DNA of 64,000 nt from a virus (lineage: Duplodnaviria; Heunggongvirae; Uroviricota; Caudoviricetes). The stretch lies in IMG/VR virus record IMGVR_UViG_3300028103_000015; one strand, 5' to 3'. Positions 35,012-63,699 of the stretch are shown here, piece after piece. The first letter of the stretch is position 1. Each line of letters starts with the position of its first letter. Under the pieces are notes generated by a model. That model saw only the letters and a list, made by a program, of their open reading frames with translations, was not told the DNA's origin and searched no databases. The translations under genes were made by a program, and so were the position numbers.

Positions 35012-35046
35012 ATATAATTGATTTACAATTGATTATGTGATGAATT

Positions 35047-35075
35047 TGCATGAATTTTACCGAAAATGTCATGCA
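35047..35075. promoter_or_regulatory. 7-bp inverted repeat TGCATGA-N15-TCATGCA
   Basis: Seen directly. Lies 36-64 nt upstream of the first leftward gene. Confidence 0.35.
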
Positions 35076-35086
35076 TTTACTTCCTG

Positions 35087-35122
35087 ATTTGGCTGATTAT
35101 GAGCTACAAAACTCAGCCAAAT
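35087..35122. promoter_or_regulatory. operator-like perfect 10-bp inverted repeat ATTTGGCTGA-N16-TCAGCCAAAT
   Basis: Seen directly. ATGAGCTA direct repeats lie at 35098 and 35121. Confidence 0.45.
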
Positions 35123-35161
35123 GAGCTATAATGTGACTTATATGGGACAAATACACCGCAA

Positions 35162-35183
35162 AATGTGCGTTTTATGACACATT
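35162..35183. promoter_or_regulatory. palindrome AATGTG-N10-CACATT
   Basis: Half-site related to the AAAGTG..CACTTT repeats. Confidence 0.3.
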
Positions 35184-35233
35184 ATTCAACACAAACCGTG
35201 CTTGATGGTGCTTTTTGCATATAATTTCATCAT

Positions 35234-35322
35234 AAAGTGCATTATTATACACTTTTACGTATAATTTGTTCCTCATGAATGATATTACTGCTTAAAAGTG
35301 CATTCTGTTACACTTTTACGTA
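35234..35322. promoter_or_regulatory. two 28-bp direct repeats, each internally palindromic (AAAGTG-N12-CACTTTTACGTA), spaced 61 bp apart
   Basis: 35234..35261 and 35295..35322 are identical except for 4 central positions. Confidence 0.45.
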
Positions 35323-35602
35323 CTTAAAAATGTAACAAAAAGAAGCAGCCCATATTGCAGAGCTGCTTCAGAGTTACAGCACTTAGTAACCCAACCCTTC
35401 TAGAAATGCTGCATCAGCTATCACCAATATGTCTCCTTTTGAATAAGTACATTCAAAGAAGATGCGAAGCTGATTAGCTAATTTCTGGAAGTTCCTAAAA
35501 TCTTTTACGTCTGTAAATTTTACGGTTTTCATTTTGCTTTGTATTTGAAGGGTGAATAAATACTTTGTCGCATAAATATAGCAATAAATAGCCAAACCAC
35601 CA

Positions 35603-35748: not shown

Positions 35749-35967
35749 CTATGAATTATTTTTAATGTATTCTGCTACCATCAGCTCCCTCATCCTACCT
35801 CTTGTCCTCCTAGGCAAATCATTATCCCTAGCAAACCTGTGTAATGTTCTTTCTGTAAGCCCTGTAGCATTACATATGTCCTTCATTGTTGGAAACCTAT
35901 TTATGTCATACCAACATTTCTTGACAATACGCACCTTCATGTCATATATATTAAGATTCTCTTCCAT
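35749..35967 (-). CDS. AlpA/Xis-like helix-turn-helix DNA-binding protein
   Basis: TMKDICNATGLTERTLHRFARDNDLP matches the AlpA-family HTH pattern. Confidence 0.5.
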   Translation of the reverse strand: MEENLNIYDMKVRIVKKCWYDINRFPTMKDICNATGLTERTLHRFARDNDLPRRTRGRMRELMVAEYIKNNS

Positions 35968-36109
35968 ATGTTCCCTGTTTTAATAGCCTATATCCTTCCT
36001 CTATATCAGCAGCTAATTTAGCCACTTGTTCGTCTGTATACGTCTCAAGTTCTTCAAGCTTCCATGTTGTGTTGTCAAGGATGTAATCAATAAGTTGTTG
36101 TCTGGTCAT
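35951..36109 (-). CDS. hypothetical small protein
   Basis: ORF 35951..36166 trimmed to Met20 so that it does not run into the tRNA-like element. Confidence 0.3.
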   Translation of the reverse strand: MTRQQLIDYILDNTTWKLEELETYTDEQVAKLAADIEEGYRLLKQGTYGRES

Positions 36110-36140
36110 AATACATGGTTTAAATGAATAAATAGTGTGT

Positions 36141-36241
36141 GCAGCTGGAGGGACTCGAACCCTCATTTCCTGGTATTAACCACGTAAACATGGCATCTCT
36201 CCCTTATCTTTTACATTTCCATACATTAGAGAGCCAGCTGC
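36141..36241 (-). other. tRNA-derived element: perfect T-arm (GAGGG-TTCGAGT-CCCTC) plus a 7-nt acceptor 3' strand, with a complementary 5' strand 100 nt away; not foldable as a canonical tRNA
   Basis: The plus strand carries GGACTCGAACCCTC at 36150..36163 and CAGCTGC at both 36142..36148 and 36234..36240. There is no workable D-arm or anticodon arm. Confidence 0.5.
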
Positions 36242-36414
36242 ATAAAATGGTTGATTAATGCTATATTTATGTCCTATTTGGCCGATGTGTCCTATTATCA
36301 ATTTACCCCTTATAAGTGTCTATGGGTCACACTGCATCTCTCTAACACACTGAGAATCAATTGATTACACCCACCCTACGCAACAAAACACCATTGCCCA
36401 CCCATATATACAAT

Positions 36415-36451
36415 GGGAAAAAAGAAAGACTCCCGTGGGTGAGAGCCTTTC
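36415..36451 (-). terminator. terminator-like hairpin after gene 36461..36865
   Basis: Imperfect 11-bp stem GAAAGACTCCC/GAGAGCCTTTC with a T-rich tail on the minus strand. Confidence 0.4.
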
Positions 36452-36460
36452 TTGGTTAGT

Positions 36461-36865
36461 TTAGAACGGTGAGCTTGCAAGAGCCTTGAGAGATTCTTCT
36501 GTAAGACCAGCAGAGCTAGCCTGTGTGCGAATCTCTTGAGCAATCTCAATGTCTAACAAGCTTGCGTCAGCATGAGCCTGCTTGATTTCATCGCGTGTCT
36601 TGAACGCACTAAGAGCTGTAAGCCTGTCTGATGTCACAGGAAGACCTTTCTCATCAACAACAGGATTGCCTTTCAAATCAAGCTGTCCAATCTGCTTAAT
36701 CGTAGCAATGCAATAGAATGGGAACTTAACGTCTGTTTGACTTTCCCAACCAAGAGCCTGCATTTGACGCTTGAACAAATGGATTCTGTCTCCGAGTGCT
36801 GTGTAGCCTGAGAAATTACCGCTTGCTGTGAATGCTCCATTGTTGATGACATAATTCTTGTTCAT
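36461..36865 (-). CDS. hypothetical protein
   Basis: 134-aa ORF with its own upstream motif and downstream terminator. Confidence 0.55.
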   Translation of the reverse strand: MNKNYVINNGAFTASGNFSGYTALGDRIHLFKRQMQALGWESQTDVKFPFYCIATIKQIGQLDLKGNPVVDEKGLPVTSDRLTALSAFKTRDEIKQAHADASLLDIEIAQEIRTQASSAGLTEESLKALASSPF

Positions 36866-36917
36866 CTGTTTTTGTTTTTAAAGTTAATAATAAATAATAA
36901 ACCTATATCCGATAAAA

Positions 36918-36938
36918 GGTTTTGGGATGGATGATGGG
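36918..36938 (-). promoter_or_regulatory. conserved upstream motif copy C (plus-strand GGTTTTGGGATGGATGATGGG)
   Basis: One of three related motifs found just upstream of consecutive leftward genes. Confidence 0.4.
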
Positions 36939-36941
36939 AAA

Positions 36942-36962
36942 AAAGGGGAGCAATTCCCCTTT
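36942..36962 (-). terminator. rho-independent terminator after gene 36967..37281
   Basis: Stem AAAGGGGA/TCCCCTTT with a T-run on the minus strand. Confidence 0.5.
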
Positions 36963-36966
36963 ATTG

Positions 36967-37281
36967 CTAACTTACTAACTCAAGCCATTCTGCGTCTGGT
37001 TCATATTGCTCACAACTCTTCATTGCTGGTATTGTCAACCAATCCAGCATGTCTCTTTTCCTTTGGAAGGCAGCACCAATCACCTTGAATGACCCACTAA
37101 TATCTTCTCCCCACAGTGGGCTGAAGTCTTTTATATCTTTCATTTGGTCAGAGATTACAGCATAGAATGGTGTTTTCAATGAACCACTAATTAATTCAGG
37201 CAGGAAGAACATTTCTCCAAACATGTTCTGGCAAATGTTCATTGTCTTGTCAATGTGAAGAATAACTGTAACTTTAAACAT
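36967..37281 (-). CDS. hypothetical protein
   Basis: 104-aa ORF flanked by a motif and a terminator. Confidence 0.5.
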   Translation of the reverse strand: MFKVTVILHIDKTMNICQNMFGEMFFLPELISGSLKTPFYAVISDQMKDIKDFSPLWGEDISGSFKVIGAAFQRKRDMLDWLTIPAMKSCEQYEPDAEWLELVS

Positions 37282-37307
37282 AATGTATTGATTTATAGTT
37301 GTTTAAT

Positions 37308-37322
37308 GGTTTTGGAATGAAT
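37308..37322 (-). promoter_or_regulatory. conserved upstream motif copy B (GGTTTTGGAATGAAT)
   Basis: 26 nt upstream of the start at 37281. Confidence 0.4.
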
Positions 37323-37325
37323 AAA

Positions 37326-37348
37326 AAAAGCACGCATTGAGCGTGCTT
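37326..37348 (-). terminator. rho-independent terminator after gene 37347..37547
   Basis: Stem AAGCACGC/GCGTGCTT with T7 on the minus strand. Confidence 0.6.
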
Positions 37349-37547
37349 ATTCTCCGAATGCAACTAATTCATCCCACTCTTCAGGTGTCATTCCTGTTAG
37401 AATGAACTCCCTTTCATGTGGCTTGAGGTGAGGAAATGCATCCTGCACCTTAGCACCACTTAAGTAGGAATCAATCTGTTCTTCTGTAATGTCTAGCTCC
37501 ATTGTGTGTTGTTTGCCTGTCAATTGGCTTGTTGTTGTTACTAGCAT
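37347..37547 (-). CDS. hypothetical protein (66 aa, acidic)
   Basis: ORF flanked by a motif and a terminator. Confidence 0.5.
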   Translation of the reverse strand: MLVTTTSQLTGKQHTMELDITEEQIDSYLSGAKVQDAFPHLKPHEREFILTGMTPEEWDELVAFGE

Positions 37548-37573
37548 AACGTTTAATTTTAAGGCTGTTAAAT

Positions 37574-37593
37574 GGTTTTGGGATGGAATGAGG
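37574..37593 (-). promoter_or_regulatory. conserved upstream motif copy A (GGTTTTGGGATGGAATGAGG)
   Basis: 26 nt upstream of the start at 37547. Confidence 0.4.
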
Positions 37594-37812
37594 ACAAGGG
37601 AAGAACTGGTCTTCCCATGATGTGTCTGCCGTTCTTAGTGGCTTAATTCTCCATAATTAATCTATTCCTTTAGAATGCAGCAATGAACTTGTGGCAGACC
37701 GTTGAACTGTTGCTGTCCTTTAGAAAAGATTTCCAGAACGTTTTACCTGGCAAAATCGCCCATTCTGTAGCAATTGATGGGGGGTAGCCCCAACATTGCA
37801 AGACAGGCTGGG

Positions 37813-37827
37813 GGTTTTGAAATGGAG
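37813..37827. repeat. related motif copy GGTTTTGAAATGGAG
   Basis: Same core as copies A-C. Confidence 0.3.
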
Positions 37828-37865
37828 TACCCTCCCCTCCTATACACATAATACCTAGGGGCACT

Positions 37866-38010
37866 TACAAGTGTAGGGGGGCTTGTCAGGATATGAGTTG
37901 ACATAGGGGGGTGTTTTGTCAGGCCATAGGTTTACAAAAATAAATTTGGCTTATATGGAGGAAGGTTTGTAACTTTGGGGTGGAGGGTGGGGTGAGAGAA
38001 TAAGTCTGGT
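37866..38010. repeat. G-rich repeat region: TAGGGGGG-N3-6-GTCAGG twice, plus a GGGGTGGAGGGTGGGG tract
   Basis: G-runs stand out in an otherwise AT-rich, apparently non-coding region. Confidence 0.35.
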
Positions 38011-38133
38011 CCTATAGATAGAATGTGGTTAAATGGGTGTAAGTGGTGGATGGAATGGTCTGGGAGATGGAAAAAAGAGCATAATATAGCAATAAGCTAA
38101 AAGATTGTATTTGAACATGTTAGAATAACATTG

Positions 38134-38141
38134 TATCTTTG
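38134..38141 (+). promoter_or_regulatory. TATCTTTG, a Bacteroidetes-type -7 element for the rightward operon
   Basis: Matches TAnnTTTG, 15 nt upstream of the ATG at 38156. Confidence 0.35.
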
Positions 38142-38155
38142 TACCATTCTACATA

Positions 38156-38503
38156 ATGAGAGTGATATTACAAAAACTAAAGAAGGAAGAGAAGGACGAT
38201 TATCTGTTAGCAGAGAGGTATTACACCATCCTTTCTTCTATTAATGATTTGAAGCTTACACAGAGGGAAATACAGCTTATAGCCTATGCAGCTATAAGAG
38301 GTAACATCTCTTATGCTAATATAAGGAAGGATTTTTGTGAGAAGTATGGCACCACCAATCCGTCTATAAATAACATTATTTCTAGGCTGAAGAAGATGGG
38401 CGTATTAGTGAAGGATGGGACGAAGGTGAAGGTGAATCCTAGGATAGTATTAAACTTTGAAAATGATGTCACCCTTGAAATCAGACTTGTTCACGGACAA
38501 TAA
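38156..38503 (+). CDS. winged-helix DNA-binding regulator (MarR/ArsR-like)
   Basis: LTQREIQLIAYAAIRGNISYANIRKDFCEKYGTTNPSINNIISRLKKMGVLVKDGTKV: HTH plus wing. Confidence 0.45.
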   Translation: MRVILQKLKKEEKDDYLLAERYYTILSSINDLKLTQREIQLIAYAAIRGNISYANIRKDFCEKYGTTNPSINNIISRLKKMGVLVKDGTKVKVNPRIVLNFENDVTLEIRLVHGQ

Positions 38504-39837: not shown

Positions 39838-40156
39838 AAAAACTACATACGTAAATGCTGAGCTTGATTGGGCAGAACAACAGCTTTCCTCCTGGAAGGC
39901 GTATGTTGATGCCAATCCCCTGCATGAACTTAAAGATAGGATTGAGTGGAAACCTACAGCCAAAGGAGGCATGCTTCCCATGGTGATTGCATCAATCGAA
40001 GCACAAGGTAAGTTTATACAGGAAACAATGAAGAACTACTTGGCTCTTCTAGAGGTGGTGGAGAAACTAAGAGAGAAGGAAGAAGCTAAAGTGGAAATCA
40101 GAGGCAATGGAGAACTAAGCTCCATGGCTGAGGACTTCCTTAAGAGCAGACGATAA
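39821..40156 (+). CDS. putative terminase small subunit
   Basis: 111-aa gene immediately upstream of the large terminase, overlapping it with ATGA. Assigned by position only. Confidence 0.3.
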   Translation: MAKTIKKTTYVNAELDWAEQQLSSWKAYVDANPLHELKDRIEWKPTAKGGMLPMVIASIEAQGKFIQETMKNYLALLEVVEKLREKEEAKVEIRGNGELSSMAEDFLKSRR

Positions 40157-42183
40157 TGGGCGAGCTTAAAAGCATAGACTACAAAGACTGGTTTATTAAC
40201 CAGGGGCGTCTGCCTGACCGTGAGTCAGAGGAGTATAAACAGTTCTATGACTTTCACAAAGAGCTTTGTCTCAATGGTTGCATGATGGGCGGTGTATACA
40301 TCAACCCATTTTTATACTGGCATCTGAACATGTGGCATACAGAGGTGGATGTTGTTGATGAGCGTGGAAGAATATATCAGAAATATGCCAATCCCCTGTT
40401 GCGTGATAACGAATGGATAGTGACAAATGAAATCGACAGGGCACAACAAGAAAAAAAGGGCTTGGTCATCCTAGGAATTAGACGTTTTGCCAAGTCTGTT
40501 TTAGAGGCTTCTTACATAGGGTGGGGCGCAACGTTTGACGAAAATTCCCAGAATGTGATCGCTGGGTTAAATGCCCCCGATATAAAGCTGATCACAGATA
40601 AGCTGGACAAGGGCCTCAACTTTTTGCCTGAAGCATGGAGATGGCAGAGAGTGGAGGATAATTGGAAAAACCAAGTCACCCTAGGTATCAAGACTCGTGG
40701 AGGGGAACGTATACCGTTCTCCCAAATCCTCATCCGTAACTTGGATGAAGGTAATAACGAGGAAGCTATTGCAGGTACAAAACCACGTAAACTAATTATT
40801 GATGAGATTGGTAAGGGAAATTTCCTTAGAGGTTTTCAGGCAGCTGTGCCTGGTTTCACCACACCTTATGGTTGGGGATGTTCTCCTTTGCTTACAGGTA
40901 CAGGTGGTGATATGAAGAAATTCATGGATGCTAAATCCTTGATGTTTGATGCAGACAATTTTAACTTCCTAAGTTATAACAATGAGAAAGATGACACGCG
41001 CGTTCATGGGTTATTTATCTCATATAAGTATCGCATGGAGGCAAAAGAAGAAAGCACGCTCGGTGAGTTTTTGGAACAGCCTGTTGACAGTGACTTGTAT
41101 AATGTTAAGATGTTGGTGAGCAATGAAGACAAAGCTCTTGAAATCACCACAAACAATTTAGAAAGACTAAAGAAGGCTGGAGACAGAGTGGCTTATTTGA
41201 AAGAGAAGATGTACTATCCAATTGAAGTGGATGACATCTTCCTCAATGAGGACACAAACATATTTGATATAGAAGCAGCCAAACGTCAAAAGAGTAGGTT
41301 GCTTATGCAGGGGCGTACGGGCACTCCTGTTATTCTGTTTAATGACGGTGAAAAGATTTGTCACGAGTTTACGGACAAACAACCAATAACCAACTTCCCT
41401 CTAAAGAACAGTGACTTAAAAGATGCTCCTGTTGTTATATACGAATTCCCTATCGAGAATCCTCCATACGGACTCTATGTAGCAGGGGTTGACCCATACA
41501 GACAAGGACAAGCTGCGTATTCTACATCTCTTGGTAGTGTGTACATTTATAAAAGAATGCATGATATTACAGGAGAGAAATATCAGGATATGTTCGTAGC
41601 TTCGTATTGTGCAAGACCTGATAAGAAAGACACCTGGGAAGAACAGGCACGACTTCTCATCAAGTATTTCAATGCACGTACACTTTGTGAGAACGATGAC
41701 ATATCTTTCATAGAATATATGAAAGCAAAAGGAGATGCACACTACCTAGAGAAGCAACCTGATTGGTTGAAGGAAGTGGTGCCTGGAACAACAGTGAAAC
41801 GTGACTATGGTGTACACCGTTCTTCTGAGAAAATCAGAGACTATCTACACAACTGTCTGAAGAAGTATATGGAGGAAGTGGTGTATTCTGAGAAGGATGA
41901 TGACGGAAAGATAGTGAAAGAAGTGACAGGTGTATCAAAGATATTTGATCCTGTGCTGTTGGAAGAAATCATCCAATACAACGATCAAGGTAACTTTGAC
42001 CGTATTGTGGCTGCAGAACTTGCTATTGCTCAGGCTCTTAAGATGGATCCTGTGCTTGGTAAGGTGGGAGGATCCAGTGATCCTAGAGTGAGCGCGATAT
42101 TCAAACCCAATAAGAAGAATGTGTTGTTCACAGAATCTCGTGGGTTATTTAATAAAAGGAAAAAAAGTAAACTTTTTACATAA
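40156..42183 (+). CDS. terminase large subunit
   Basis: Terminase-type Walker A (ILGIRRFAKSV) and Walker B (LIIDEIG). 675 aa, followed by the portal-sized gene. Confidence 0.7.
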   Translation: MGELKSIDYKDWFINQGRLPDRESEEYKQFYDFHKELCLNGCMMGGVYINPFLYWHLNMWHTEVDVVDERGRIYQKYANPLLRDNEWIVTNEIDRAQQEKKGLVILGIRRFAKSVLEASYIGWGATFDENSQNVIAGLNAPDIKLITDKLDKGLNFLPEAWRWQRVEDNWKNQVTLGIKTRGGERIPFSQILIRNLDEGNNEEAIAGTKPRKLIIDEIGKGNFLRGFQAAVPGFTTPYGWGCSPLLTGTGGDMKKFMDAKSLMFDADNFNFLSYNNEKDDTRVHGLFISYKYRMEAKEESTLGEFLEQPVDSDLYNVKMLVSNEDKALEITTNNLERLKKAGDRVAYLKEKMYYPIEVDDIFLNEDTNIFDIEAAKRQKSRLLMQGRTGTPVILFNDGEKICHEFTDKQPITNFPLKNSDLKDAPVVIYEFPIENPPYGLYVAGVDPYRQGQAAYSTSLGSVYIYKRMHDITGEKYQDMFVASYCARPDKKDTWEEQARLLIKYFNARTLCENDDISFIEYMKAKGDAHYLEKQPDWLKEVVPGTTVKRDYGVHRSSEKIRDYLHNCLKKYMEEVVYSEKDDDGKIVKEVTGVSKIFDPVLLEEIIQYNDQGNFDRIVAAELAIAQALKMDPVLGKVGGSSDPRVSAIFKPNKKNVLFTESRGLFNKRKKSKLFT

Positions 42184-53959: not shown

Positions 53960-55210
53960 ATGCCTGAAAATCAATCTCTTCTGCAACAGATGGAGCATAT
54001 GCTTCACTGGAAAAAGAGCAAAAAGTTCTATGCAGACAAACTCAACATTACAGAAAGCGAAGTGGATGATTTGATAAAGGAGCTGCGAAGTTCGCAGATG
54101 GCACAGGATGACGCAGAGATAGGGAACTACATTGGGGAGCTAGAAGATCAGATAGTAAGATTTTATGAAGACGTTCAAAGGGGAACTGGAGAAGTGGTCT
54201 TCAACTCTAAAGAGGAAATCAAAAGTTTAGATGAGCTCATTGAGAAGTGCAAGATTGATACAGAGAAATGGGAAATAACTAAATACGTACAAAACTACTG
54301 GGGAAATGCTGAGCAGCCTCACTACCAAGTGAAAGCATGGCTGGGCAAGAAGAAAGGAGAACAAGTTTTTCAAGATAATTTCATCACATTTCTTGAGACA
54401 TATACACCTGTTTCGCCTGAGATAGTGGCTCCTAAGTATGATGCAGGCAGACAAGATGCTTGCCTTATTATCAACAAACAGGATGCCCATTTAAACAAAC
54501 TAGATATAGCAGGGGATAACGATATAGACGAGCGTTTTGGTGATTTCATACAGAGGGTGGAGATCATCCTAGACCAAGCCTCTCTAGCCAACAATCTCAC
54601 AGATATCAAATACATCATTGGTTCTGATGAGTTCAATAGTGAGTTTACCAACACCACTACAAAGGGTACACCCCAACAAAACATCTTGTCCTATCACGAT
54701 GCTTTCCAAGCTATCTGTGATCATGAAGTGAGTGTGATAAACCTTCTCCTTCAGAAGGGTGAAGAAGTGGAGGTGATATTTGTAGCTGGCAATCATGATG
54801 AGTATGTAGGATGGCATTTAGCCAGTTGGTTGAAAACCTATTACAGAAAAGAATATCGTGTGCATTTTGACATATCTCCAAGGTATAGGAAGTACGTAAG
54901 TTATGGAAGTTCTGCAATGATGTTCAACCACGGAGATGCTCTTAAGCCTGCAAAACTTGCGCATCTGTTCCCAATGGAGTTCAAATTTGCATGGTCAGAC
55001 CACGATAATTTCTACATATTTACAGGTGATAAACACCATGAAATGAGTTTAGATTTCAATGGTATTAAGTTCTATCAGCTTCCAGCCTTCTCCACAGCTA
55101 AGAGTGGATGGGATGATAAAAATGGGTACACAATAACCAAAGGTGAAGTGACAGGATTCTTGATAGACTATGATAATGGAATAACAAATATATTCAAACA
55201 GTATTTATAA
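53960..55210 (+). CDS. calcineurin-like metallophosphoesterase domain protein
   Basis: GNHDEY (motif III), FNHGD, and GDKHHEM (GHxH-like). Confidence 0.45.
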   Translation: MPENQSLLQQMEHMLHWKKSKKFYADKLNITESEVDDLIKELRSSQMAQDDAEIGNYIGELEDQIVRFYEDVQRGTGEVVFNSKEEIKSLDELIEKCKIDTEKWEITKYVQNYWGNAEQPHYQVKAWLGKKKGEQVFQDNFITFLETYTPVSPEIVAPKYDAGRQDACLIINKQDAHLNKLDIAGDNDIDERFGDFIQRVEIILDQASLANNLTDIKYIIGSDEFNSEFTNTTTKGTPQQNILSYHDAFQAICDHEVSVINLLLQKGEEVEVIFVAGNHDEYVGWHLASWLKTYYRKEYRVHFDISPRYRKYVSYGSSAMMFNHGDALKPAKLAHLFPMEFKFAWSDHDNFYIFTGDKHHEMSLDFNGIKFYQLPAFSTAKSGWDDKNGYTITKGEVTGFLIDYDNGITNIFKQYL

Positions 55211-55938
55211 TGTCAACTTTTAGGAAGTTAGTTTCAGATGCGCGCTCTATGCACAAGTTGCTCTCCACAGACAACTTGATCACAGATAGAGCTATTATGT
55301 CTGAGATTAAGAACAATGCCTTCCTCTTGATAAAGCGTGAGACTAATCTGAGGAAGTTATGGGCAACCGATACAGTTTTTACCACCATTCCTTGTCTAGA
55401 GATGGTGGAAGTTCCTATTTCTGAATGCTGTGATTATGCTGATCCTTGCACGGTCTCTAGAACGAAGTTTAAGCTTCCTAGGATTACAGAGGGTAACTAT
55501 CAGTATGTAATTCAGGGTGTTTATTCAATTAACGCCATGAGTGGACAGGGAAAGAAACTTAAGGAAATAACCATCAACCGATACGTGAATTTGCTCAAGC
55601 TTCCAATTATTAAGAAGGAAGAATACTATTGGATTTCAAATGGGTATCTGTATGTAAACAACCCATTGCTAAAAGCAATCAGACTAGTTGCTCTTTTCGA
55701 GGAAGATGTTCCAAATGAGATAATGTATCCAGAATGTGGATGTGGAACTCCTAGCTATACACCAGAGCAACTGTGTGTAAATCCTTTAGATAAAGAATCT
55801 CCAGTGCCTGGCTACCTAGAAAAGCAGGTGTTAGAGCTCACTTCTCAGAAGCTTCTCACTACGTATTTCAAACTTAAGACAGACATCACAAGTGATGGCG
55901 TTGATGGTCAAGCACCTAACGCTCCAAACTTGAGATGA
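55210..55938 (+). CDS. hypothetical structural protein
   Basis: 242 aa. ATGA overlap. Confidence 0.5.
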   Translation: MSTFRKLVSDARSMHKLLSTDNLITDRAIMSEIKNNAFLLIKRETNLRKLWATDTVFTTIPCLEMVEVPISECCDYADPCTVSRTKFKLPRITEGNYQYVIQGVYSINAMSGQGKKLKEITINRYVNLLKLPIIKKEEYYWISNGYLYVNNPLLKAIRLVALFEEDVPNEIMYPECGCGTPSYTPEQLCVNPLDKESPVPGYLEKQVLELTSQKLLTTYFKLKTDITSDGVDGQAPNAPNLR

Positions 55939-55939
55939 T

Positions 55940-56422
55940 ATGAGAGTAAAGATAGACTGGCGAAGCGCTAGCAAAGATAACTACAACAGTTTCTGTAAGA
56001 AACATCCGTCCATCAAGCTTACATTTGATCAGTGGAGAAACATCATCTATTCTTTTAATGATGCCTTTAGAGAATATATTCTTGAGACAGGAGAACGAGC
56101 AAAGCTGCCCTTTGGGTTTGGTGAGTTCTCAATAAGCAAGAAGAAGCGCAGGAAGATAAAAGGAATAGATGGTAAAGAGTTTGTCAATCTTCCTATTGAT
56201 TGGAAGAAGACAAAAGAAAAAGGTAAGCGTATATACAATTTCAACTTTCACACAGAGGGTTATTTCTTTGGATGGATGTGGTTTAAATTAACAGCTAGGT
56301 TTAAACACTCACCGCTGTGGTATTTCAAACCTTCCAGGAACACGTCTAGGCTTCTCTCCCACTATCTGAGAGCTGATGACAAATACCAACATTTATATCA
56401 AGAATGGAAAAAAGCATTATAG
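55940..56422 (+). CDS. hypothetical protein
   Basis: 160 aa. Confidence 0.5.
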   Translation: MRVKIDWRSASKDNYNSFCKKHPSIKLTFDQWRNIIYSFNDAFREYILETGERAKLPFGFGEFSISKKKRRKIKGIDGKEFVNLPIDWKKTKEKGKRIYNFNFHTEGYFFGWMWFKLTARFKHSPLWYFKPSRNTSRLLSHYLRADDKYQHLYQEWKKAL

Positions 56423-57394
56423 ATGGCATACTATTACAAATATAATTTCGTCACTCCTGAGCCTATCTACTCTATCGTCAAGGAAGAGTTTAAAAGCTAT
56501 TTTGATACAGGAGCTGTAGATGATTTGATGTTTCCCACCTATCTAGACAAATGTCTCAGAAAGCTGGGAAGAACCACTTATGTGATTTCTCAAGAGATTC
56601 TTCACATCTGTGACTATGAAGCAAGACTCCCAGATAATTTCTACGCTGTTCGTGAAGCTTGGCTTTGTACAGCTGTAAATGGTTTTCCATATCAGCAGGC
56701 CAACTCGTTCTATTCACAAGCAGCTAGCTCTACAACTATTCAAGTGAGCCCTGTGATTGTGTATGGTAATCCTTGTGAAGAGGGTAATTGTGGTCAACAG
56801 TTTTGTCCTAAGTGTATGCCTGATTTGGTGCAAGCTGTATATAAGACAAATAATCAAGCACCTGTACTCTATAGAAAGGAATATCTTCTCAAGCCTGGTA
56901 ATATATCTGCACAGGGTAACTGTGGTGTAGATTATACCAACAACTGGGAATTCTATCAAGAGGCACCTCCTATCAACGAGTTTACACCTGGTTCCTCCTG
57001 GTATGATTCATTTGATATTAGAGACAATAAGTTTGTTACTAACTTCCGCAATGGTGTAGTGCATCTGCTTTTCTATGCAACAGAATATGACCAAGTGGGT
57101 AACCAATTGATTCCTGACAACTATCGTATCAGGGAGTTTGTGGAAGCCTTCATTAAGTATAAAGTGATTGAAACGCTCACCAATCAGACCAATGATGAGA
57201 CATTTAATCAGCTTCAACAAAAGCTAGCTTTCTACAAACAGCAGGCTGATGAGGCGTTCATTATGGCTGATATTGAGATTAAGAAACAAGATCCTTGGAC
57301 CAAGCAACGCAGAATAATCAACGATCTTAATAGGTTTAACATGTATGAACTACCTAACCGTACCAATAGATATGGTTGGAGACGCAATAACTAA
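56423..57394 (+). CDS. hypothetical structural protein
   Basis: 323 aa. Confidence 0.5.
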   Translation: MAYYYKYNFVTPEPIYSIVKEEFKSYFDTGAVDDLMFPTYLDKCLRKLGRTTYVISQEILHICDYEARLPDNFYAVREAWLCTAVNGFPYQQANSFYSQAASSTTIQVSPVIVYGNPCEEGNCGQQFCPKCMPDLVQAVYKTNNQAPVLYRKEYLLKPGNISAQGNCGVDYTNNWEFYQEAPPINEFTPGSSWYDSFDIRDNKFVTNFRNGVVHLLFYATEYDQVGNQLIPDNYRIREFVEAFIKYKVIETLTNQTNDETFNQLQQKLAFYKQQADEAFIMADIEIKKQDPWTKQRRIINDLNRFNMYELPNRTNRYGWRRNN

Positions 57395-57399
57395 CACTA

Positions 57400-60300
57400 A
57401 TGGCTGAACAGGAACAAGGTAATATTAGGCAGGAATATAATAATGCTACCACTGGTCTTAACATGGACCAAACCCCTAATCAAATACAGAAGGGGAAACT
57501 TACGTATGCATTAAACGCTGCTGTTGAAAACTTTGACTCTAATTCTGTAAACTATCAGAATGAGCCAGGGAATGAACTGTGTGTTACATTCCCTTCTGGC
57601 TTTGTACTTATAGGTAATCATTTCATCCAAGAAAGAAACAAACATGTATTCTTCATCACCAATCCAGACACTGGAGCTAGTCAGATTGGATATATGGAAA
57701 ACAATGATTGCGTCTATCGTGTACTTGTAAATGCTCCATGTCTCAACTTTAACACTAGCTATCCCATACAAAAGGTGGCGCACAAGATTACCAACTGCAC
57801 CACTGAGATATATTGGACAGATGGTTACAATCCCAGAAGATACCTAGACATTGACAACATTCCTAAGGTGTTGAAGTCTGGCACTCCTTTCTGCCATCCT
57901 GAGTATACAGACGATCTAGACTGTAATCAACTCAAACTCCAGCCTAATTTCAAGATTCCTCAACTGGATGTAACAGATGTCACTAGCACAGGAAATCTCA
58001 CTGCTGGCACATACCAGTTTGCTATACAATACTCTGATCCTCAGGGCAATCCTTACACATCCTATTATTCTGTTACCAACCCAACACCTATTGCTGATGA
58101 GTTTATTACATCAGTGAACTTCAACTATCCTGTTGGTAAATCCATCATCCTTAATATCAGCAATCTTGAGGACAGTGGGCTCTACCAATATTTCAACTTG
58201 GCGGTGATCAGAACAGTGAATGATATCACTTCTGTGGAGCTAGTGGGTACATATTACATTGATAATGTACAAAAGCAAATCACATACACTGGTCAGAACG
58301 TTACACAAATCCGTCTTACCATCAATGATATATTTGAGAAATTCCCTTATTATGATATTGCACAAGACCTGACAACAGCTCAAGATATTCTTATATGGGA
58401 CAATCTTACATCCATTGATCGTATCAACTATCAAAGCATTGCAAATCAAATCAATCTTCAGTGGGAAAGCTGGAGAATTCCTGCTAATGAGAATTACGCA
58501 GATGAATTGAATGCCACCAACCTTAGAGGTTATCTGAGGGACGAAGTGTATGCATTTGAAATAGTATTCTTGCTTAAGAATGGCAAGCAAACAGATGGAT
58601 TCCATATTCCTGGTAGGATAGCAACAAGCTTTGACTTAACACCAGTTTCTCCAGCAAATGATGACTTCATTGGAGAACCTGATCCTTTTACAGGAACCAG
58701 TCCATATTGGAAGATATACAACACAGCATCTGTTACAGGATTTGCTCCTGAATATTCCCCTGCTGATGACTACAAAGGACCATACCAATATGGTCAGTTT
58801 GCATATTGGGAATCTACAGACACCTATCCTTGTAATGCAGATGTTTGGGGTGATTTGGCTGGTCAACCAATTAGACATCACAAGTTCCCAGATATAAACA
58901 TCAGTGCTGCATATGAGTCTAAGATTTTCTTAGGACCTACAGCAATGGTGCAGGGAAATGATGCTGTATTCCCTATTGGTGTACATCTGGATATACAGCA
59001 AGTGGAGGCTCTCATTCAGTCATCTAGTTTGACAGATGACCAGAAAAGTGATATTGTTGGATTCAAGATTATACGTGCAGACCGTGGCACAAACAAATCT
59101 ATTGTAGCAAAGGGCATCCTTAGGAATGTGAATACGTATGAAAGAGAGAAGCAAACCTACTTCTATCCCAACTATCCATACAACGATCTTAATGTAGATC
59201 CATTCCTTAATGAGAACAACAATGCCTGGACACAGATTTGTGATGATTACACAATAGAGATATCGTCTCTTGGTCCATGCTCTGATGGTGGTGCCAACTG
59301 TGCAGAGGTGTTATACACAGATTGCAACAGTAATAAACAGGGTACACAGAAATATTATTCTACAGGAACATACCATTTATGTTCTACAAGCAAGCCTTTG
59401 GTGTTATCCCCTGCAACAGGAAGAACAGGACTTTCTACATATGATGTTTGGGTGGCAACAATATGTCCTCCTACATTTTTAAAGACAGGTAATAGGATAG
59501 AATGGGTTGATATATACAACGGACCTTCTACAGAATGGATAACAGGATGGCCAAATGTAGAAACATTTACATTCAATGCAGTTCCTGGAACAATCCCAAA
59601 GGTGATAGAAGGAACACCTGATAATATATGTTTCACTGGTCCTACACGTGTCACTGGTCCTAATTGTAAAATAGAAACTCCACAGCACGCTGTAACAGAG
59701 AAGTACAGACAGATATTCAACTCTCCTGAAACTTCCTTTGGACAGCCATTCTTAGGTGGTATTCTGAAGCTTGAGAGTGTAATGTTTGGTGGTGGCAAGG
59801 CCCATTTTGTTGAGGTGAAGAGCAATGCTAAATACAAGCTCTTGACAGAACAAGCTCAGGTGGATGCTCTTAACAGTTCTAATAAACTAGGTGCTCTCAC
59901 CACACCGTTTAGTGCCACTGCTATGTTCACCACATATCAGGCATATTTGACAATCTATGTAAACGGTATCACCAGAAAAAACTATGCTTATTCTTTCAAC
60001 TCTGTAGCTGATTACAACTATGGTGTTGGAGTTCCTGACAACCTTGGTATAAAGCAGAGAAACTTAGACATTGCTAGATATTTGATTCCTGGTGTGCAGA
60101 ATGTTGGTGATGTATACAACATCAACAACTTCCAGAGGGAATCATCTGTATATTTGAGAACTGATCTAGACAGACCAGCGCTTCCTTTCCCAGACCAAAG
60201 TCCTAACATGGTGTCTTCAGGAAGTCCTTTGGTTACAGACAAGTCTAGATTCACCATATCAGAGATTGGTAACTGTGATGTTCCTGGTAAGGAAGAAGAC

Positions 60301-63162
60301 ATATCTGTTGTGTCTTATTATGCTTCTATGAAGAACATCTTCCCAAATCAATATGGACAGATCTATTCATATGACACTGTAGACACTGGTTATCAGGCAA
60401 TTATAAATAGTGTTGACCAACCACGTACAGTGTTTGGTGGTGATACATTCATCAGTAGATTTGCATTCAAGAGCAAGCTTCCTTTCTTTATAGATAATAG
60501 GGTGAACGCTCCTGATGACAGTGATATATTCTATGATGAGATTGGTAATATAGCCTATCCAAAATACTGGCACTCAGCCAGATCTATTCTGAAGGATTAT
60601 GTAAGTAGTGGAGGAACATTAACCAACATCATATCTTATAAGGCTCACAACTTTGATTGCCCTAACGATCAGGGTGTTATTGTTACGCCTTCAATCACCA
60701 CTACCACAACCACCACTATTTTACAAGGCACCATTATTTCAACCAATCCAAACAGGACATACTATGATGGATATTTCTATCTGTTTGCATATGGTATTCC
60801 CAACTTCTATTGTGAAAGCTCTTACAATATTGACCTGCGTCAGGCGTTCAATAATAGAGAGGGTGATTTCTGGCCTCACGTGAGCACAGGTATTCCTGAT
60901 GACTGGGTGCAGCAAAGCTTTGTACCTATTGCTCAGGATAACACCTACTATTACAATGTGAGCTATTCTAAGCAAAACAGGGAGAATACATTCACCCATT
61001 TGCCTATCGACTGGGACAAACCTTGTTACACCTACTATCCATTCAGAGCCATCTATTCTGATAGCCAGAACATAGATGCTGACAACAGAGTGAATAGCTG
61101 GTTGATTTACAGAGCCATCTCCTATTATGATTTCCCTCAGAACTTTGGAGATCTTGTGTCTCTAGATGGAATTCAGAACAGAGCTGTTCTTGCTCGTTTT
61201 GAGAACAAGACACTCATGTATAACAACCTCCTTACAATAGATACAAGTAACCCTCAGGCTGCCTATGTAGGCAATCCAAGGTTGTTTAGAGGAGCACCCC
61301 CAATTGACTTCGCAGAAACTGATTTGGGATATGTAGGAACTCAAAACAAGATGTTATTGAAGATTCCACAAGGACAAGTGAGTGTGGATGCTAAGAGGGG
61401 TCAGGTGTTCCTAATAGCTGGAACAGAGGCTGTAGATTTGTCTGGTTTTGGATCTGGTCTTAACAGGTTCTTTACAGACCATCTGGCATTTGAAATCTTG
61501 CGTTACTTCCCTAAGGTGAACACAGACAACAACTTCACAGGGATTGGATTACATGGTGTGTATGACAGCAAGTATGACCGTGTGCTTATTACAAAGCTTG
61601 ATTATGTTCCTAAGGTGAATTCCATCATGTATGATGAAAATACAAGGACATTTTATGATGTTAAAGAAGTGAATGGTCTTATAATCAGAATACCTATATC
61701 TGTATCTGATGAAAAATACTTCTGTAACAAGAGCTGGACAGTGTCTTTCAACTTCAATACAAAGAGCTGGATAAGCTTCCATAGCTATCTGCCTAATTGG
61801 TATATTGGAGAAAACAACTTCTTCTATTCTGGTATCAACGGATGCTGTGATGACTTTGATGTGCTTGTTGGTACAATTGGACCTATTCCAACCACCACCA
61901 CAACTACAACACTTGATTGTGCTCTTGCAGGTATTGTGTATCTTTACAACTGTGATTTGGAAGGAACAGCAACTCCTGTAACTACTACCACTACATCTAG
62001 TACAAGCACTACAACCACCACATCTAGTACTAGCACAACCACCACATCTAGCACAACCACCACATCTAGCACAACCACTACAACGACTACCGCTCCACCT
62101 GAACCAATTTATAGTGTTAGACGTTGCTCAGATGACTTTGGTCCATACAAGATAACTTACGGTACTGGTGATGTACCAACCCTGGTGGGACAAGCATTTT
62201 TACTAAATAACGGTGGATCACCATTCGATGGAGCTACTTGCTGGTATATTGAAAGTTTATCAGTTGAAGGACCTGCTGATTATGCTGCTGTTGCATTCGG
62301 TACAGCTTATGCAGATTGTGATTCGTGTCCTTCTTTAACAACTACCACCACCACTGCACCACCTCCAGAACAATATACACTAAACTATAGCGATGTTGGT
62401 TGTGCAGAAGCTTGTGCAGGATATGGACCTCCATGTTCGAATTGCTCTACATATTACGCAGCAACTGGTGATCCATTGGCTAATGGTACGACAATTTATA
62501 CAGACTATAATCTAACAACAATAGCTCCAAATGGATATTATTCCAACGGAGTTTCATGTTGGACAATAGCAGGTAGTCCTGGTGGTGTATTAAATGCAGA
62601 AAGTGCCTGTGTAACTACAACAACCACAACAACAGAAGCCCCTGTCACCACAACCACTACAACAACACCAACACCTACCACCACTACAACAACAACTGAG
62701 CCACCAACTACTACCACTACCACTACAGCTGCATTAGTTTTGTCTAGTATATTAGTAGTTGATGATAATGCATATAGCACAACAAGCTTGGCATGTACAA
62801 GTAATATAAACCCAGGTAGTAGCGGAACATACGATTATATACAGGGTAAGGTGACTTGCACGTTGAAGGATCAATATGGAAATACCTTTACAAACAATTT
62901 AGGATATGCAGTGGATGTAGACATAGATGCTAATGTAACAGGATGTAGTCCTGGTACTGTACCATTCACTATATCAATACCAAACGGAAGTTCAAGTGGA
63001 TACATCATATATGACGTACAAATAACAGACAACTGTGGTGATCCAGATGCATTCTCATGTACACAGAACACAACAACTATGGATTGCATCACAGCAATTA
63101 CAAATAGCTACCCAGTTTATACAGGAAGTAATTTGGATTATTGTTCATCACCACCTTTATAA
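57400..63162 (+). CDS. giant (1920 aa) modular virion protein; C-terminal part is a chain of small Cys-rich modules joined by poly-Thr/Ser linkers; likely tail fibre or adhesin
   Basis: Single uninterrupted ORF. Poly-T runs at roughly aa 1096, 1497, 1527-1565, 1646, 1741-1770. Confidence 0.6.
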   Translation: MAEQEQGNIRQEYNNATTGLNMDQTPNQIQKGKLTYALNAAVENFDSNSVNYQNEPGNELCVTFPSGFVLIGNHFIQERNKHVFFITNPDTGASQIGYMENNDCVYRVLVNAPCLNFNTSYPIQKVAHKITNCTTEIYWTDGYNPRRYLDIDNIPKVLKSGTPFCHPEYTDDLDCNQLKLQPNFKIPQLDVTDVTSTGNLTAGTYQFAIQYSDPQGNPYTSYYSVTNPTPIADEFITSVNFNYPVGKSIILNISNLEDSGLYQYFNLAVIRTVNDITSVELVGTYYIDNVQKQITYTGQNVTQIRLTINDIFEKFPYYDIAQDLTTAQDILIWDNLTSIDRINYQSIANQINLQWESWRIPANENYADELNATNLRGYLRDEVYAFEIVFLLKNGKQTDGFHIPGRIATSFDLTPVSPANDDFIGEPDPFTGTSPYWKIYNTASVTGFAPEYSPADDYKGPYQYGQFAYWESTDTYPCNADVWGDLAGQPIRHHKFPDINISAAYESKIFLGPTAMVQGNDAVFPIGVHLDIQQVEALIQSSSLTDDQKSDIVGFKIIRADRGTNKSIVAKGILRNVNTYEREKQTYFYPNYPYNDLNVDPFLNENNNAWTQICDDYTIEISSLGPCSDGGANCAEVLYTDCNSNKQGTQKYYSTGTYHLCSTSKPLVLSPATGRTGLSTYDVWVATICPPTFLKTGNRIEWVDIYNGPSTEWITGWPNVETFTFNAVPGTIPKVIEGTPDNICFTGPTRVTGPNCKIETPQHAVTEKYRQIFNSPETSFGQPFLGGILKLESVMFGGGKAHFVEVKSNAKYKLLTEQAQVDALNSSNKLGALTTPFSATAMFTTYQAYLTIYVNGITRKNYAYSFNSVADYNYGVGVPDNLGIKQRNLDIARYLIPGVQNVGDVYNINNFQRESSVYLRTDLDRPALPFPDQSPNMVSSGSPLVTDKSRFTISEIGNCDVPGKEEDISVVSYYASMKNIFPNQYGQIYSYDTVDTGYQAIINSVDQPRTVFGGDTFISRFAFKSKLPFFIDNRVNAPDDSDIFYDEIGNIAYPKYWHSARSILKDYVSSGGTLTNIISYKAHNFDCPNDQGVIVTPSITTTTTTTILQGTIISTNPNRTYYDGYFYLFAYGIPNFYCESSYNIDLRQAFNNREGDFWPHVSTGIPDDWVQQSFVPIAQDNTYYYNVSYSKQNRENTFTHLPIDWDKPCYTYYPFRAIYSDSQNIDADNRVNSWLIYRAISYYDFPQNFGDLVSLDGIQNRAVLARFENKTLMYNNLLTIDTSNPQAAYVGNPRLFRGAPPIDFAETDLGYVGTQNKMLLKIPQGQVSVDAKRGQVFLIAGTEAVDLSGFGSGLNRFFTDHLAFEILRYFPKVNTDNNFTGIGLHGVYDSKYDRVLITKLDYVPKVNSIMYDENTRTFYDVKEVNGLIIRIPISVSDEKYFCNKSWTVSFNFNTKSWISFHSYLPNWYIGENNFFYSGINGCCDDFDVLVGTIGPIPTTTTTTTLDCALAGIVYLYNCDLEGTATPVTTTTTSSTSTTTTTSSTSTTTTSSTTTTSSTTTTTTTAPPEPIYSVRRCSDDFGPYKITYGTGDVPTLVGQAFLLNNGGSPFDGATCWYIESLSVEGPADYAAVAFGTAYADCDSCPSLTTTTTTAPPPEQYTLNYSDVGCAEACAGYGPPCSNCSTYYAATGDPLANGTTIYTDYNLTTIAPNGYYSNGVSCWTIAGSPGGVLNAESACVTTTTTTTEAPVTTTTTTTPTPTTTTTTTEPPTTTTTTTAALVLSSILVVDDNAYSTTSLACTSNINPGSSGTYDYIQGKVTCTLKDQYGNTFTNNLGYAVDVDIDANVTGCSPGTVPFTISIPNGSSSGYIIYDVQITDNCGDPDAFSCTQNTTTMDCITAITNSYPVYTGSNLDYCSSPPL
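61981..62095 (+). repeat. tandem 21-bp coding repeat (about 4 copies of AGCACAACCACCACATCTAGC-like units, encoding TTTTSST)
   Basis: Seen directly inside the giant gene. Confidence 0.6.
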
Positions 63163-63174
63163 AAGGATAAACTT

Positions 63175-63699
63175 ATGGCACAGACAGTATTAATAGTATT
63201 AACCACAGCAGGAACTAACACAGGCCCCTTTAGCCTGTATTCAAATGTGGACGGATTTGTAACACCGTTTGAACTTGGTGTATCTAAGGCAGCTCTTGAA
63301 GCTGGGTACACTTCGTTTCTTGTCCCTGATGGTGCAACCATAATCAGAGTGAAGTCTAATGGTGTATGTACAAACTACATAGATATTCCTTTTGGTATAA
63401 CCACAACCACCACAACATCTAGTAGTACAACCACCACTACGAGCACCACTATTTCAACCACATCCACCACCACTACAACTTATTGTCAGTCTATTGGTGC
63501 AGGAGCTGGTTGCTTCAACTGGAACTTTACAGCAGGTGGAACAGGAGCAATTGTACAATGGACAGATTGTAATGGTAACAACCAAACATCAGTGTTGAAT
63601 GAAGGTGAGTCAGGAAGCGGATGTTTGTGTGATGGTCAAACACCAAATGTTCTAGAAGGTAGTTTATCTATTATAAGTCAAGTGGGTACATGTCCATAA
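63175..63699 (+). CDS. virion-associated protein: N-domain, then poly-Thr/Ser linker, then Cys-rich C-module
   Basis: 174 aa. Its N-terminal domain is paralogous to the start of the next ORF. Confidence 0.5.
   Translation: MAQTVLIVLTTAGTNTGPFSLYSNVDGFVTPFELGVSKAALEAGYTSFLVPDGATIIRVKSNGVCTNYIDIPFGITTTTTTSSSTTTTTSTTISTTSTTTTTYCQSIGAGAGCFNWNFTAGGTGAIVQWTDCNGNNQTSVLNEGESGSGCLCDGQTPNVLEGSLSIISQVGTCP

Follow-up and report, generated by a model that had tools for sequence, protein, structure and literature searches.

Three insulated cassettes at the head of the leftward arm

In IMG/VR record IMGVR_UViG_3300028103_000015, a stretch of 64,000 nucleotides (nt) of viral DNA that we call the window, three short genes follow one another on the minus strand, each set in a cassette made of a promoter-like motif, the gene, and a terminator (Table 1). 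A preliminary description of this DNA had proposed three insulated promoter-gene-terminator units, and that picture is borne out: the three open reading frames (ORFs), here genes A, B, and C, are present, each ends in a hairpin followed by a U-tract, and each is preceded by an exact copy of the motif GGTTTTGGRATGRA (at 36918, 37308, and 37574). The distances from motif to start codon given there are right for copies A and B (26 nt each), whereas copy C lies 52 nt, not 53 nt, from its start codon by the same counting.

As a degenerate 14-mer, GGTTTTGGRATGRA matches the 64 kb at exactly these three positions and never in 100 dinucleotide shuffles, and a fourth copy with one mismatch lies at 37813. 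A looser regular expression finds four sites against 3.7 expected, so there is no enrichment by count; the four sites all lie on a single strand, within 900 nt, and between genes. Each of the three exact copies sits between a hairpin and a leftward start codon and is oriented with its gene. The U-tracts of terminators A and B adjoin motif copies B and C, leaving no space for another promoter, and a hairpin (37619-37595) precedes copy A. Promoter-leader modules A and B share 76% identity across 41 nt. An A/T-rich box (TTAAAAT, TAAATC) stands 11 to 17 nt before each ATG, and the same box is found before genes inside operons of the window (e.g., upstream of 33219 and 25265) and before genes of the crAss-like phage phi14:2. 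The motif is likely to be a promoter of some kind.

Table 1. Features of the cassette region and the adjoining intergenic DNA, in window coordinates
Feature	Position	Strand	Description
Three host-type Bacteroidota promoters	37915-37948, 37945-37977, 38110-38141	+	TTTG-N17-23-TAnnTTTG; just before the first rightward gene
Degenerate fifth motif copy	38027-38057	-	CATTCCATCC-ACCACTTACACC-CATTTAACC, read from the sequence
D element	37772-37855	-	Minus sense ATAGGAGGGGAGGGTACTCCATTTCAAAACCCCC, ~15 nt, GTTGGGG-CTA-CCCCCC; core 37827-37813 is the fourth motif copy
Hairpin before cassette A	37595-37619	-	GGGAAGA-CCAGT-TCTTCCC, weak U-tract, -10.9 kcal/mol
Promoter-leader module A	37548-37592	-	Motif CATTCCATCCCAAAACC (37590-37574), then ATTTAACAGCC, TTAAAAT box resembling a ribosome-binding site, ATG
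Gene A	37347-37547	-	66 amino acids (aa), PHROG 20898 (function unknown)
Gene A terminator	37321-37348	-	GCACGC-TCAAT-GCGTGC (37348-37328) + U7, -14.4 kcal/mol, z score -5.4; adjoins motif copy B
Promoter-leader module B	37282-37322	-	Motif ATTCATTCCAAAACC (37322-37308), 26 nt before ATG
Gene B	36967-37281	-	104 aa
Gene B terminator	36939-36962	-	AAAGGGGA-ATTGC-TCCCCTTT (36962-36942) + U6, -11.0 kcal/mol; adjoins motif copy C
Promoter-leader module C	36866-36936	-	Motif CATCATCCATCCCAAAACC (36936-36918), 52 nt before ATG
Gene C	36461-36865	-	134 aa; conserved early protein, predicted OB-fold (SSB-like), C-terminal helix
Gene C terminator	36418-36453	-	13-bp stem (36453-36422) + U-tract, -17.6 kcal/mol, z score -4.5

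The protein family of gene A is found also in unrelated phages, and gene B matches no known family and lacks a homologue among the related cassettes that were compared with it. Searches of known RNA families and tRNAs with Rfam and ARAGORN gave nothing near threshold. Iterons or a replication origin were considered for the motif copies and rejected, since copies 239 to 390 nt apart are too distant.

Conservation of the motif in related phages

Pooled over all loci, 63 non-redundant intergenic copies give the gene-sense consensus (a)TcCaTCCCAAAACC-TTTT-nn-ACA, in which the TTTT and ACA positions are conserved though they lie outside the search pattern. In agreement with the earlier view of a phage-specific site family, the motif recurs before homologous genes in related phages: among 68 distinct gene C orthologues from metagenomes, 49 have C(A/G)TC(C/T)(C/T)AAA(A/T)C(C/T) upstream. 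Between the end of this 12-nt block and the presumed ATG lie 40 to 94 nt in the 49 orthologues, and 43 to 57 nt in 45 of them. When the upstream regions of five gene C orthologues are aligned, TCC(A/G)TC(C/T)(C/T)AAA(A/T)CCT is the best-conserved block; the flanks have otherwise diverged, and the terminators upstream are unrelated to one another.

Spacing is tighter still in cassettes with short leaders, which occur in the window and in two relatives, L010 and L102. In all eight, the first A of AAAAC lies 31 to 32 nt from the ATG, and this class has a common leader, TTTAACAGCC-TTAAAT(C/T)AAAC-nTT-ATG, before unrelated genes. Modules nearly identical to module A likewise stand before other genes in L010 and L102, and the exact long module is present in a single IMG/VR contig only. 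One subclade of metagenome loci (L138-L163) has, upstream of gene C, a second CCAAAACC ~30 nt upstream of the motif and the palindrome CTCCTATATATATAGGAG before that second copy.

A crAss-like phage with divergent arms

The window belongs to an uncultured crAss-like phage of a Bacteroidota host. Its terminase (40156-42183) is 39% identical to that of a Leptolyngbya phage, 32% to those of Cellulophaga phages phi17:2/phi4:1, and 26 to 28% to those of cultured crAss-like phages, and no GenBank phage matches the window at the DNA level in near or distant mode. In contigs that encode an identical copy of the protein at window 63175-63699, the genes corresponding to window genes 55210-63162 carry the Pfam domains CrAss_Ring_1, CrAss_Ring_2, and crAss_MUZ. 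Contigs of ~114 kb among the relatives differ in permutation. No integrase was seen among the proteins scanned.

The leftward arm runs from 37547 to 6449 (~31 kb) and encodes DNA polymerase, ribonucleotide reductase, and rIIA/B; genes A to C are the first genes of this replicative, or early, arm. About 600 nt of noncoding DNA separate it from the rightward arm, which begins at 38156 with a small winged-helix protein (38156-38503) and an HU/IHF-like protein; the terminase, portal, and capsid genes come after these. Phage phi14:2 also has divergent arms, and its replicative arm opens with small ORFs and noncoding stretches (bioRxiv 10.1101/2020.03.07.982082).

Host-type promoters are concentrated on one side of this intergenic DNA. 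The three within 37915-38141 are predicted to drive the rightward arm, and of 53 relatives, 50 have one or more such promoters within the 850 nt ahead of that arm, for a total of 92 hits over 45 kb; the ~4-kb leftward early zones together hold 7 hits in 196 kb. At cassettes A to C, the -33/-7 pair TTTG/TAnnTTTG is absent in gene sense. The preliminary description had noted that the motif does not match the host element, and indeed it is unlike the -33/-7 consensus, which is matched on the opposite strand of the same intergenic region. Two other sources of host-driven transcription were discarded: a scan for sigma-70 promoters gave fewer sites than shuffles, with the -10 of the sole 9/12 match overlapping the ATG, and an antisense host promoter starting from TTTG within GGTTTTGG has no -7 box after it. 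Within CAAAAATAAATTTG (37935-37948), two -7 boxes stand back to back, TAAATTTG facing rightward and TATTTTTG facing leftward.

The fourth motif copy forms the core of a larger block of ~85 nt, the D element, whose consensus in relatives reads ATGGGAGGGGAGGGTACTCCAnnnCAAAACCCC, ~15 nt, GGTTGGGG-nnn-CCCCCC; in the window, ATAGGAGGGG opens the first block and GTTGGGG stands in the second. It is conserved in at least 30 distinct relatives. Where relatives lack cassettes, the D element lies directly before gene C, which makes it the best candidate for the ancestral leftward promoter, and in the window it is a candidate for the primary leftward promoter. Motif copies A to C look like derived copies of its core that would serve the inserted cassettes. 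A hairpin-like run, G(3-6)-N(2-5)-C(3-7), occurs in 25 of 30 relatives, with a weak alignment fold (-5.5 kcal/mol); a structured RNA was rejected because the fold is weak on both strands. Promoters of the N4 type form hairpins that have a short G+C stem and a loop of 3 nt and lie directly before the start site; the motif itself has no hairpin.

The G-rich tracts pointed out earlier in this region are present as described, but a conserved G-quadruplex is unsupported, since relatives do not keep the G-runs at three or more (e.g., GGGAGAGGAGG). The tracts are part of a conserved divergent control region that comprises the three host-type rightward promoters and the clade-wide D element. A mechanically called 64-aa ORF (37670-37864, minus strand) spans the D element and is probably no gene, because relatives differ there by insertions and deletions. 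About 15 of 44 truncated contigs of relatives (L020-L088) end within ~800 nt around the D element (window ~37400-38150), and many contigs of relatives end within ~300 nt of it, at differing positions; proximity to a genome end and assembly breaks at the hypervariable cassette zone are equally likely explanations.

A candidate promoter for the injected RNA polymerase

Close relatives carry a giant 4013-aa ORF downstream of the muzzle gene. It contains AGSDFDIDKL, and the 1100 aa around this sequence match "putative RNA polymerase" genes of crAss-like phages (tblastn, E = 3e-31, 91% coverage); sequence searches of the ORF against Pfam, PHROG, and PDB were negative, so that tblastn alone linked it to these polymerases. 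The DFDID polymerase region lies near residue 3060-3240 (in L096/L098, past the window's right end; in L099-L101, 10001-21749). The virion polymerase of phi14:2, gp66, has ~2,200 aa. At about twice that size, the giant ORF suggests that the polymerase has been fused to other ejected proteins. Transcription of the entire replicative arm of phi14:2 is early, resistant to rifampicin, and carried out by gp66; the middle and late genes use host-type promoters, and the opposite arm has promoters of the host sigma type (bioRxiv 10.1101/2020.03.07.982082). The phage studied here resembles phi14:2 in its divergent arms, in the host-type promoters on the opposite arm, in a giant virion protein with DFDID among its relatives, and in that the cassettes lie in the arm homologous to the rifampicin-resistant one. 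It differs in its clear motif consensus and in its distance from cultured crAss-like phages, and it is known from sequence.

The reading we prefer, tentatively and at a little under an even chance, is that the motif copies serve as early promoters specific to the phage, with the injected polymerase as their probable reader. In this mechanism, (a)TcCaTCCCAAAACC-TTTT-nn-ACA would be the core, ~25 to 27 nt long, of a promoter from which transcription starts anew past each intrinsic terminator, where the leftward early arm begins. Each unit would consist, in order, of a hairpin/U-tract terminator, the motif, a short G-poor leader with a TTAAA(A/T) box resembling a ribosome-binding site, and the ATG. 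We infer promoter activity, the start site, and the identity of the polymerase from the following features. Because the A/T-rich box would be a translation signal of the Bacteroidota type, the start site should lie between AAAACC and the box, probably ~1 to 12 nt downstream of AAAACC, making the motif a compact promoter just upstream. Taking the TAAAAT box as a -10 element with leaderless mRNAs was considered and rejected, since the occurrence of the box before operon-internal and phi14:2 genes makes a translation signal more likely. The enzyme would most likely be a virion-delivered two-barrel RNA polymerase of the crAss type, because host-type promoters are missing on the arm and the homologous arm of phi14:2 is transcribed by the virion enzyme. 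That the injected polymerase is the reader is, taken by itself, plausible without being the probable outcome.

Precedent for such a pairing comes from phage P23-45, in which a related virion-packaged two-barrel polymerase is fused into a giant virion protein, and a strongly conserved, AT-rich motif lies upstream of the start sites of the pre-early genes (bioRxiv 10.1101/2022.12.01.518664). As in our phage, a conserved motif just upstream of the first-expressed genes co-occurs with a virion two-barrel polymerase. The motif sequences differ, however, the phage and its host are unrelated, and P23-45 offers start-site and chromatin immunoprecipitation (ChIP) evidence where we have the sequence alone.

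Several observations weigh against a promoter read by the injected enzyme. The polymerase gene is seen in contigs of relatives and not within the window. Early transcripts of phi14:2 have no common upstream motif (bioRxiv 10.1101/2020.03.07.982082), so that crAss-like phages offer no precedent of enzymes of this class using a sequence-specific promoter; our own search of the phi14:2 early region found no motif-like sequences. The strict motif is limited to a subclade, and our first pattern matched 4 of 80 loci fetched via the terminase gene. The 31-kb leftward arm of the window has only four copies, and therefore other promoters must serve the remainder of the arm, one candidate being the TATAGCAT element described below. 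Finally, the -7-like box TATTTTTG faces leftward at 37942; it is isolated and is the only host-type feature in this direction, but it could allow host-driven readthrough, and a host-driven transcript may run leftward from it across the D element.

Among other explanations, the main rival is a middle-type element at which the host RNA polymerase is redirected by a phage factor, the motif replacing the -33 element. MotA and AsiA of phage T4 appropriate sigma in this manner, and the winged-helix protein (38156-38503), expressed from the host-type rightward promoters, could be such a factor here. The position of the motif would suit a redirected polymerase (~27 to 40 nt upstream of the ATG, at fixed spacing, in short-leader cassettes), as would the bacterial-type intrinsic terminators that bound every cassette, the conserved winged helix-turn-helix gene directly behind three host-type promoters, and a TA dinucleotide 10 to 11 nt downstream of the motif that is invariant in the five gene C orthologues. 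Many orthologues, however, do not keep a -10-like sequence, and the A/T-rich box, shared as it is with operon-internal and phi14:2 genes, resembles a translation signal instead. Moreover, the arm is independent of the host polymerase by homology with phi14:2. We consider a redirected host enzyme unlikely.

An action of the motif in RNA, as part of the 5' leader of readthrough transcripts (a processing site, translation enhancer, or antitermination site) and not as a promoter, would agree with its G-free, unstructured character, which is like that of Bacteroidota leaders, and with its fixed spacing to the ATG; the possible leftward -7 box upstream and the D element could supply the transcripts. 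Yet the strong terminators directly upstream of each copy should leave little readthrough RNA, gene C orthologues vary in the sequence between motif and ATG yet have the motif 43 to 57 nt from the ATG in 45 of 49 cases (range 40 to 94 nt), and the fourth copy lies in a block conserved at the DNA level without a supported RNA structure, which together make a leader function improbable. Still less do we expect the motif to be an operator for a phage repressor or activator with the true promoters elsewhere. An operator would fit the presence of several copies close to a divergent control region and to a helix-turn-helix gene beside it, but the motif is asymmetric and in every case shares the orientation of the gene after it, the interval from terminator to ATG contains no other conserved promoter candidate, and the genuine palindromic operator-like repeats at 35234-35322 look different. 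Finally, the copies might be functionless remnants of cassette duplication, as the likeness of modules A and B and the unremarkable count of the relaxed pattern would allow. Such passive duplication is disfavored and, in our judgment, highly improbable, because the motif is conserved across orthologues of 64 to 85% protein identity while the flanks diverge completely, and it also stands before unrelated genes.

Turnover of the cassettes

Relatives carry from 0 to 5 cassettes at this site, with 0 to 5 genes lying between the D element and gene C, and most of them lack genes A and B. The first cassette of L102 has a gene 85% identical to gene A, and L010 has an unrelated ORF there behind the same module; an all-against-all comparison gives a further pair, L010_3435 and L102_3463, with a common module and different proteins. 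This mosaicism is the sole ground for proposing recombination at the junctions, and it suggests that terminator/promoter junctions may serve as portable boundaries for the gain, loss, and swap of small early genes.

The closest parallel is PeSL (promoter-early stem-loop) of T4-like phages, a composite terminator/early-promoter sequence that mediates modular shuffling in hyperplastic regions (PMC2839356, PMC4122927). In both cases, a stem-loop terminator lies directly before a promoter or, here, a conserved promoter-like sequence (also in L010 and L102), small ORFs of unknown function are flanked in a hyperplastic region that varies among relatives by insertion, deletion, and swap, and one regulatory module stands before non-homologous ORFs. 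The T4 early promoter, in contrast, is a host sigma-70 promoter, whereas the motif here is unlike the host consensus, and the crAss-like lineage and the host phylum are different.

Morons of lambdoid phages are found within the late operons of temperate phages, where the host polymerase expresses them from the prophage. The preliminary description had likened the cassettes to morons, with which they have in common an autonomous unit of promoter, accessory gene, and terminator. This analogy does not hold: the cassettes come first in the replicative (early) arm of a crAss-like phage instead of sitting in the late operon of a prophage, they have no host-type promoters, and PeSL is closer.

Neighboring elements

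Between the D element and cassette A (window ~37590-37770, minus strand), ~190 nt contain no credible ORF and end in a hairpin, and they include GCGATTTTGCC, which is common to L010 and L102. Phi14:2 makes early noncoding transcripts in abundance, and by analogy this stretch may encode a short RNA of that kind.

Downstream of the cassettes, a second clade-wide promoter-like element, ATA(A/C)A-TATAGCAT-TAA (window 36258-36274, minus strand), lies in a conserved patch (36242-36361) and recurs at the syntenic site of most relatives. In the window and in L072/L073, a tRNA-like element comes after it (window 36140-36242, minus strand). In relatives other than these, an ATG stands 4 to 25 nt downstream of the TATAGCAT element, which suggests a -10-type promoter with some leaderless mRNAs. 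The acceptor stem of the tRNA-like element has 8 to 9 bp (GCAGCTGG/CCAGCTGC) and its T-arm is canonical (GAGGG-TTCGAGT-CCCTC); a long arm, CTCTCT...GGGAGAG, and a hairpin, CCATG-TTTA-CGTGG, are also present. Neither ARAGORN nor Rfam recognizes it. The copy in L072/L073 is 92% identical, and its changes are compatible with pairing (C to T yields G-U; G to A yields U-A). The element overlaps the start of a mechanically called ORF (35951-36166).

Further along the arm, a 371-nt noncoding stretch (35012-35382) holds two 28-nt direct repeats (35234-35261 and 35295-35322), each an imperfect palindrome (AAAGTGCA...CACTTT), which look like operators.

Implications for crAss-like phages

CrAss-like phages are among the most abundant phages, and their infection begins with an injected giant RNA polymerase. 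The sole experimental study detected no common motif before early transcripts (bioRxiv 10.1101/2020.03.07.982082), and the motif described here provides a candidate promoter. We propose, as something that could be so rather than probably is, that the motif and the D element represent the first sequence-defined promoter for a crAss-like virion two-barrel polymerase, and that the cassette junctions double as recombination modules that shuffle early genes in an abundant freshwater clade. The consensus at the head of the early arm is sharp and widely conserved, in a clade with hundreds of metagenomic relatives, and it supplies a defined template on which initiation can be assayed in vitro and start sites can be read from metatranscriptomes. 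The idea, drawn from T4, of terminator/promoter cassettes as engines of early-gene turnover would then extend to a very different phage lineage.

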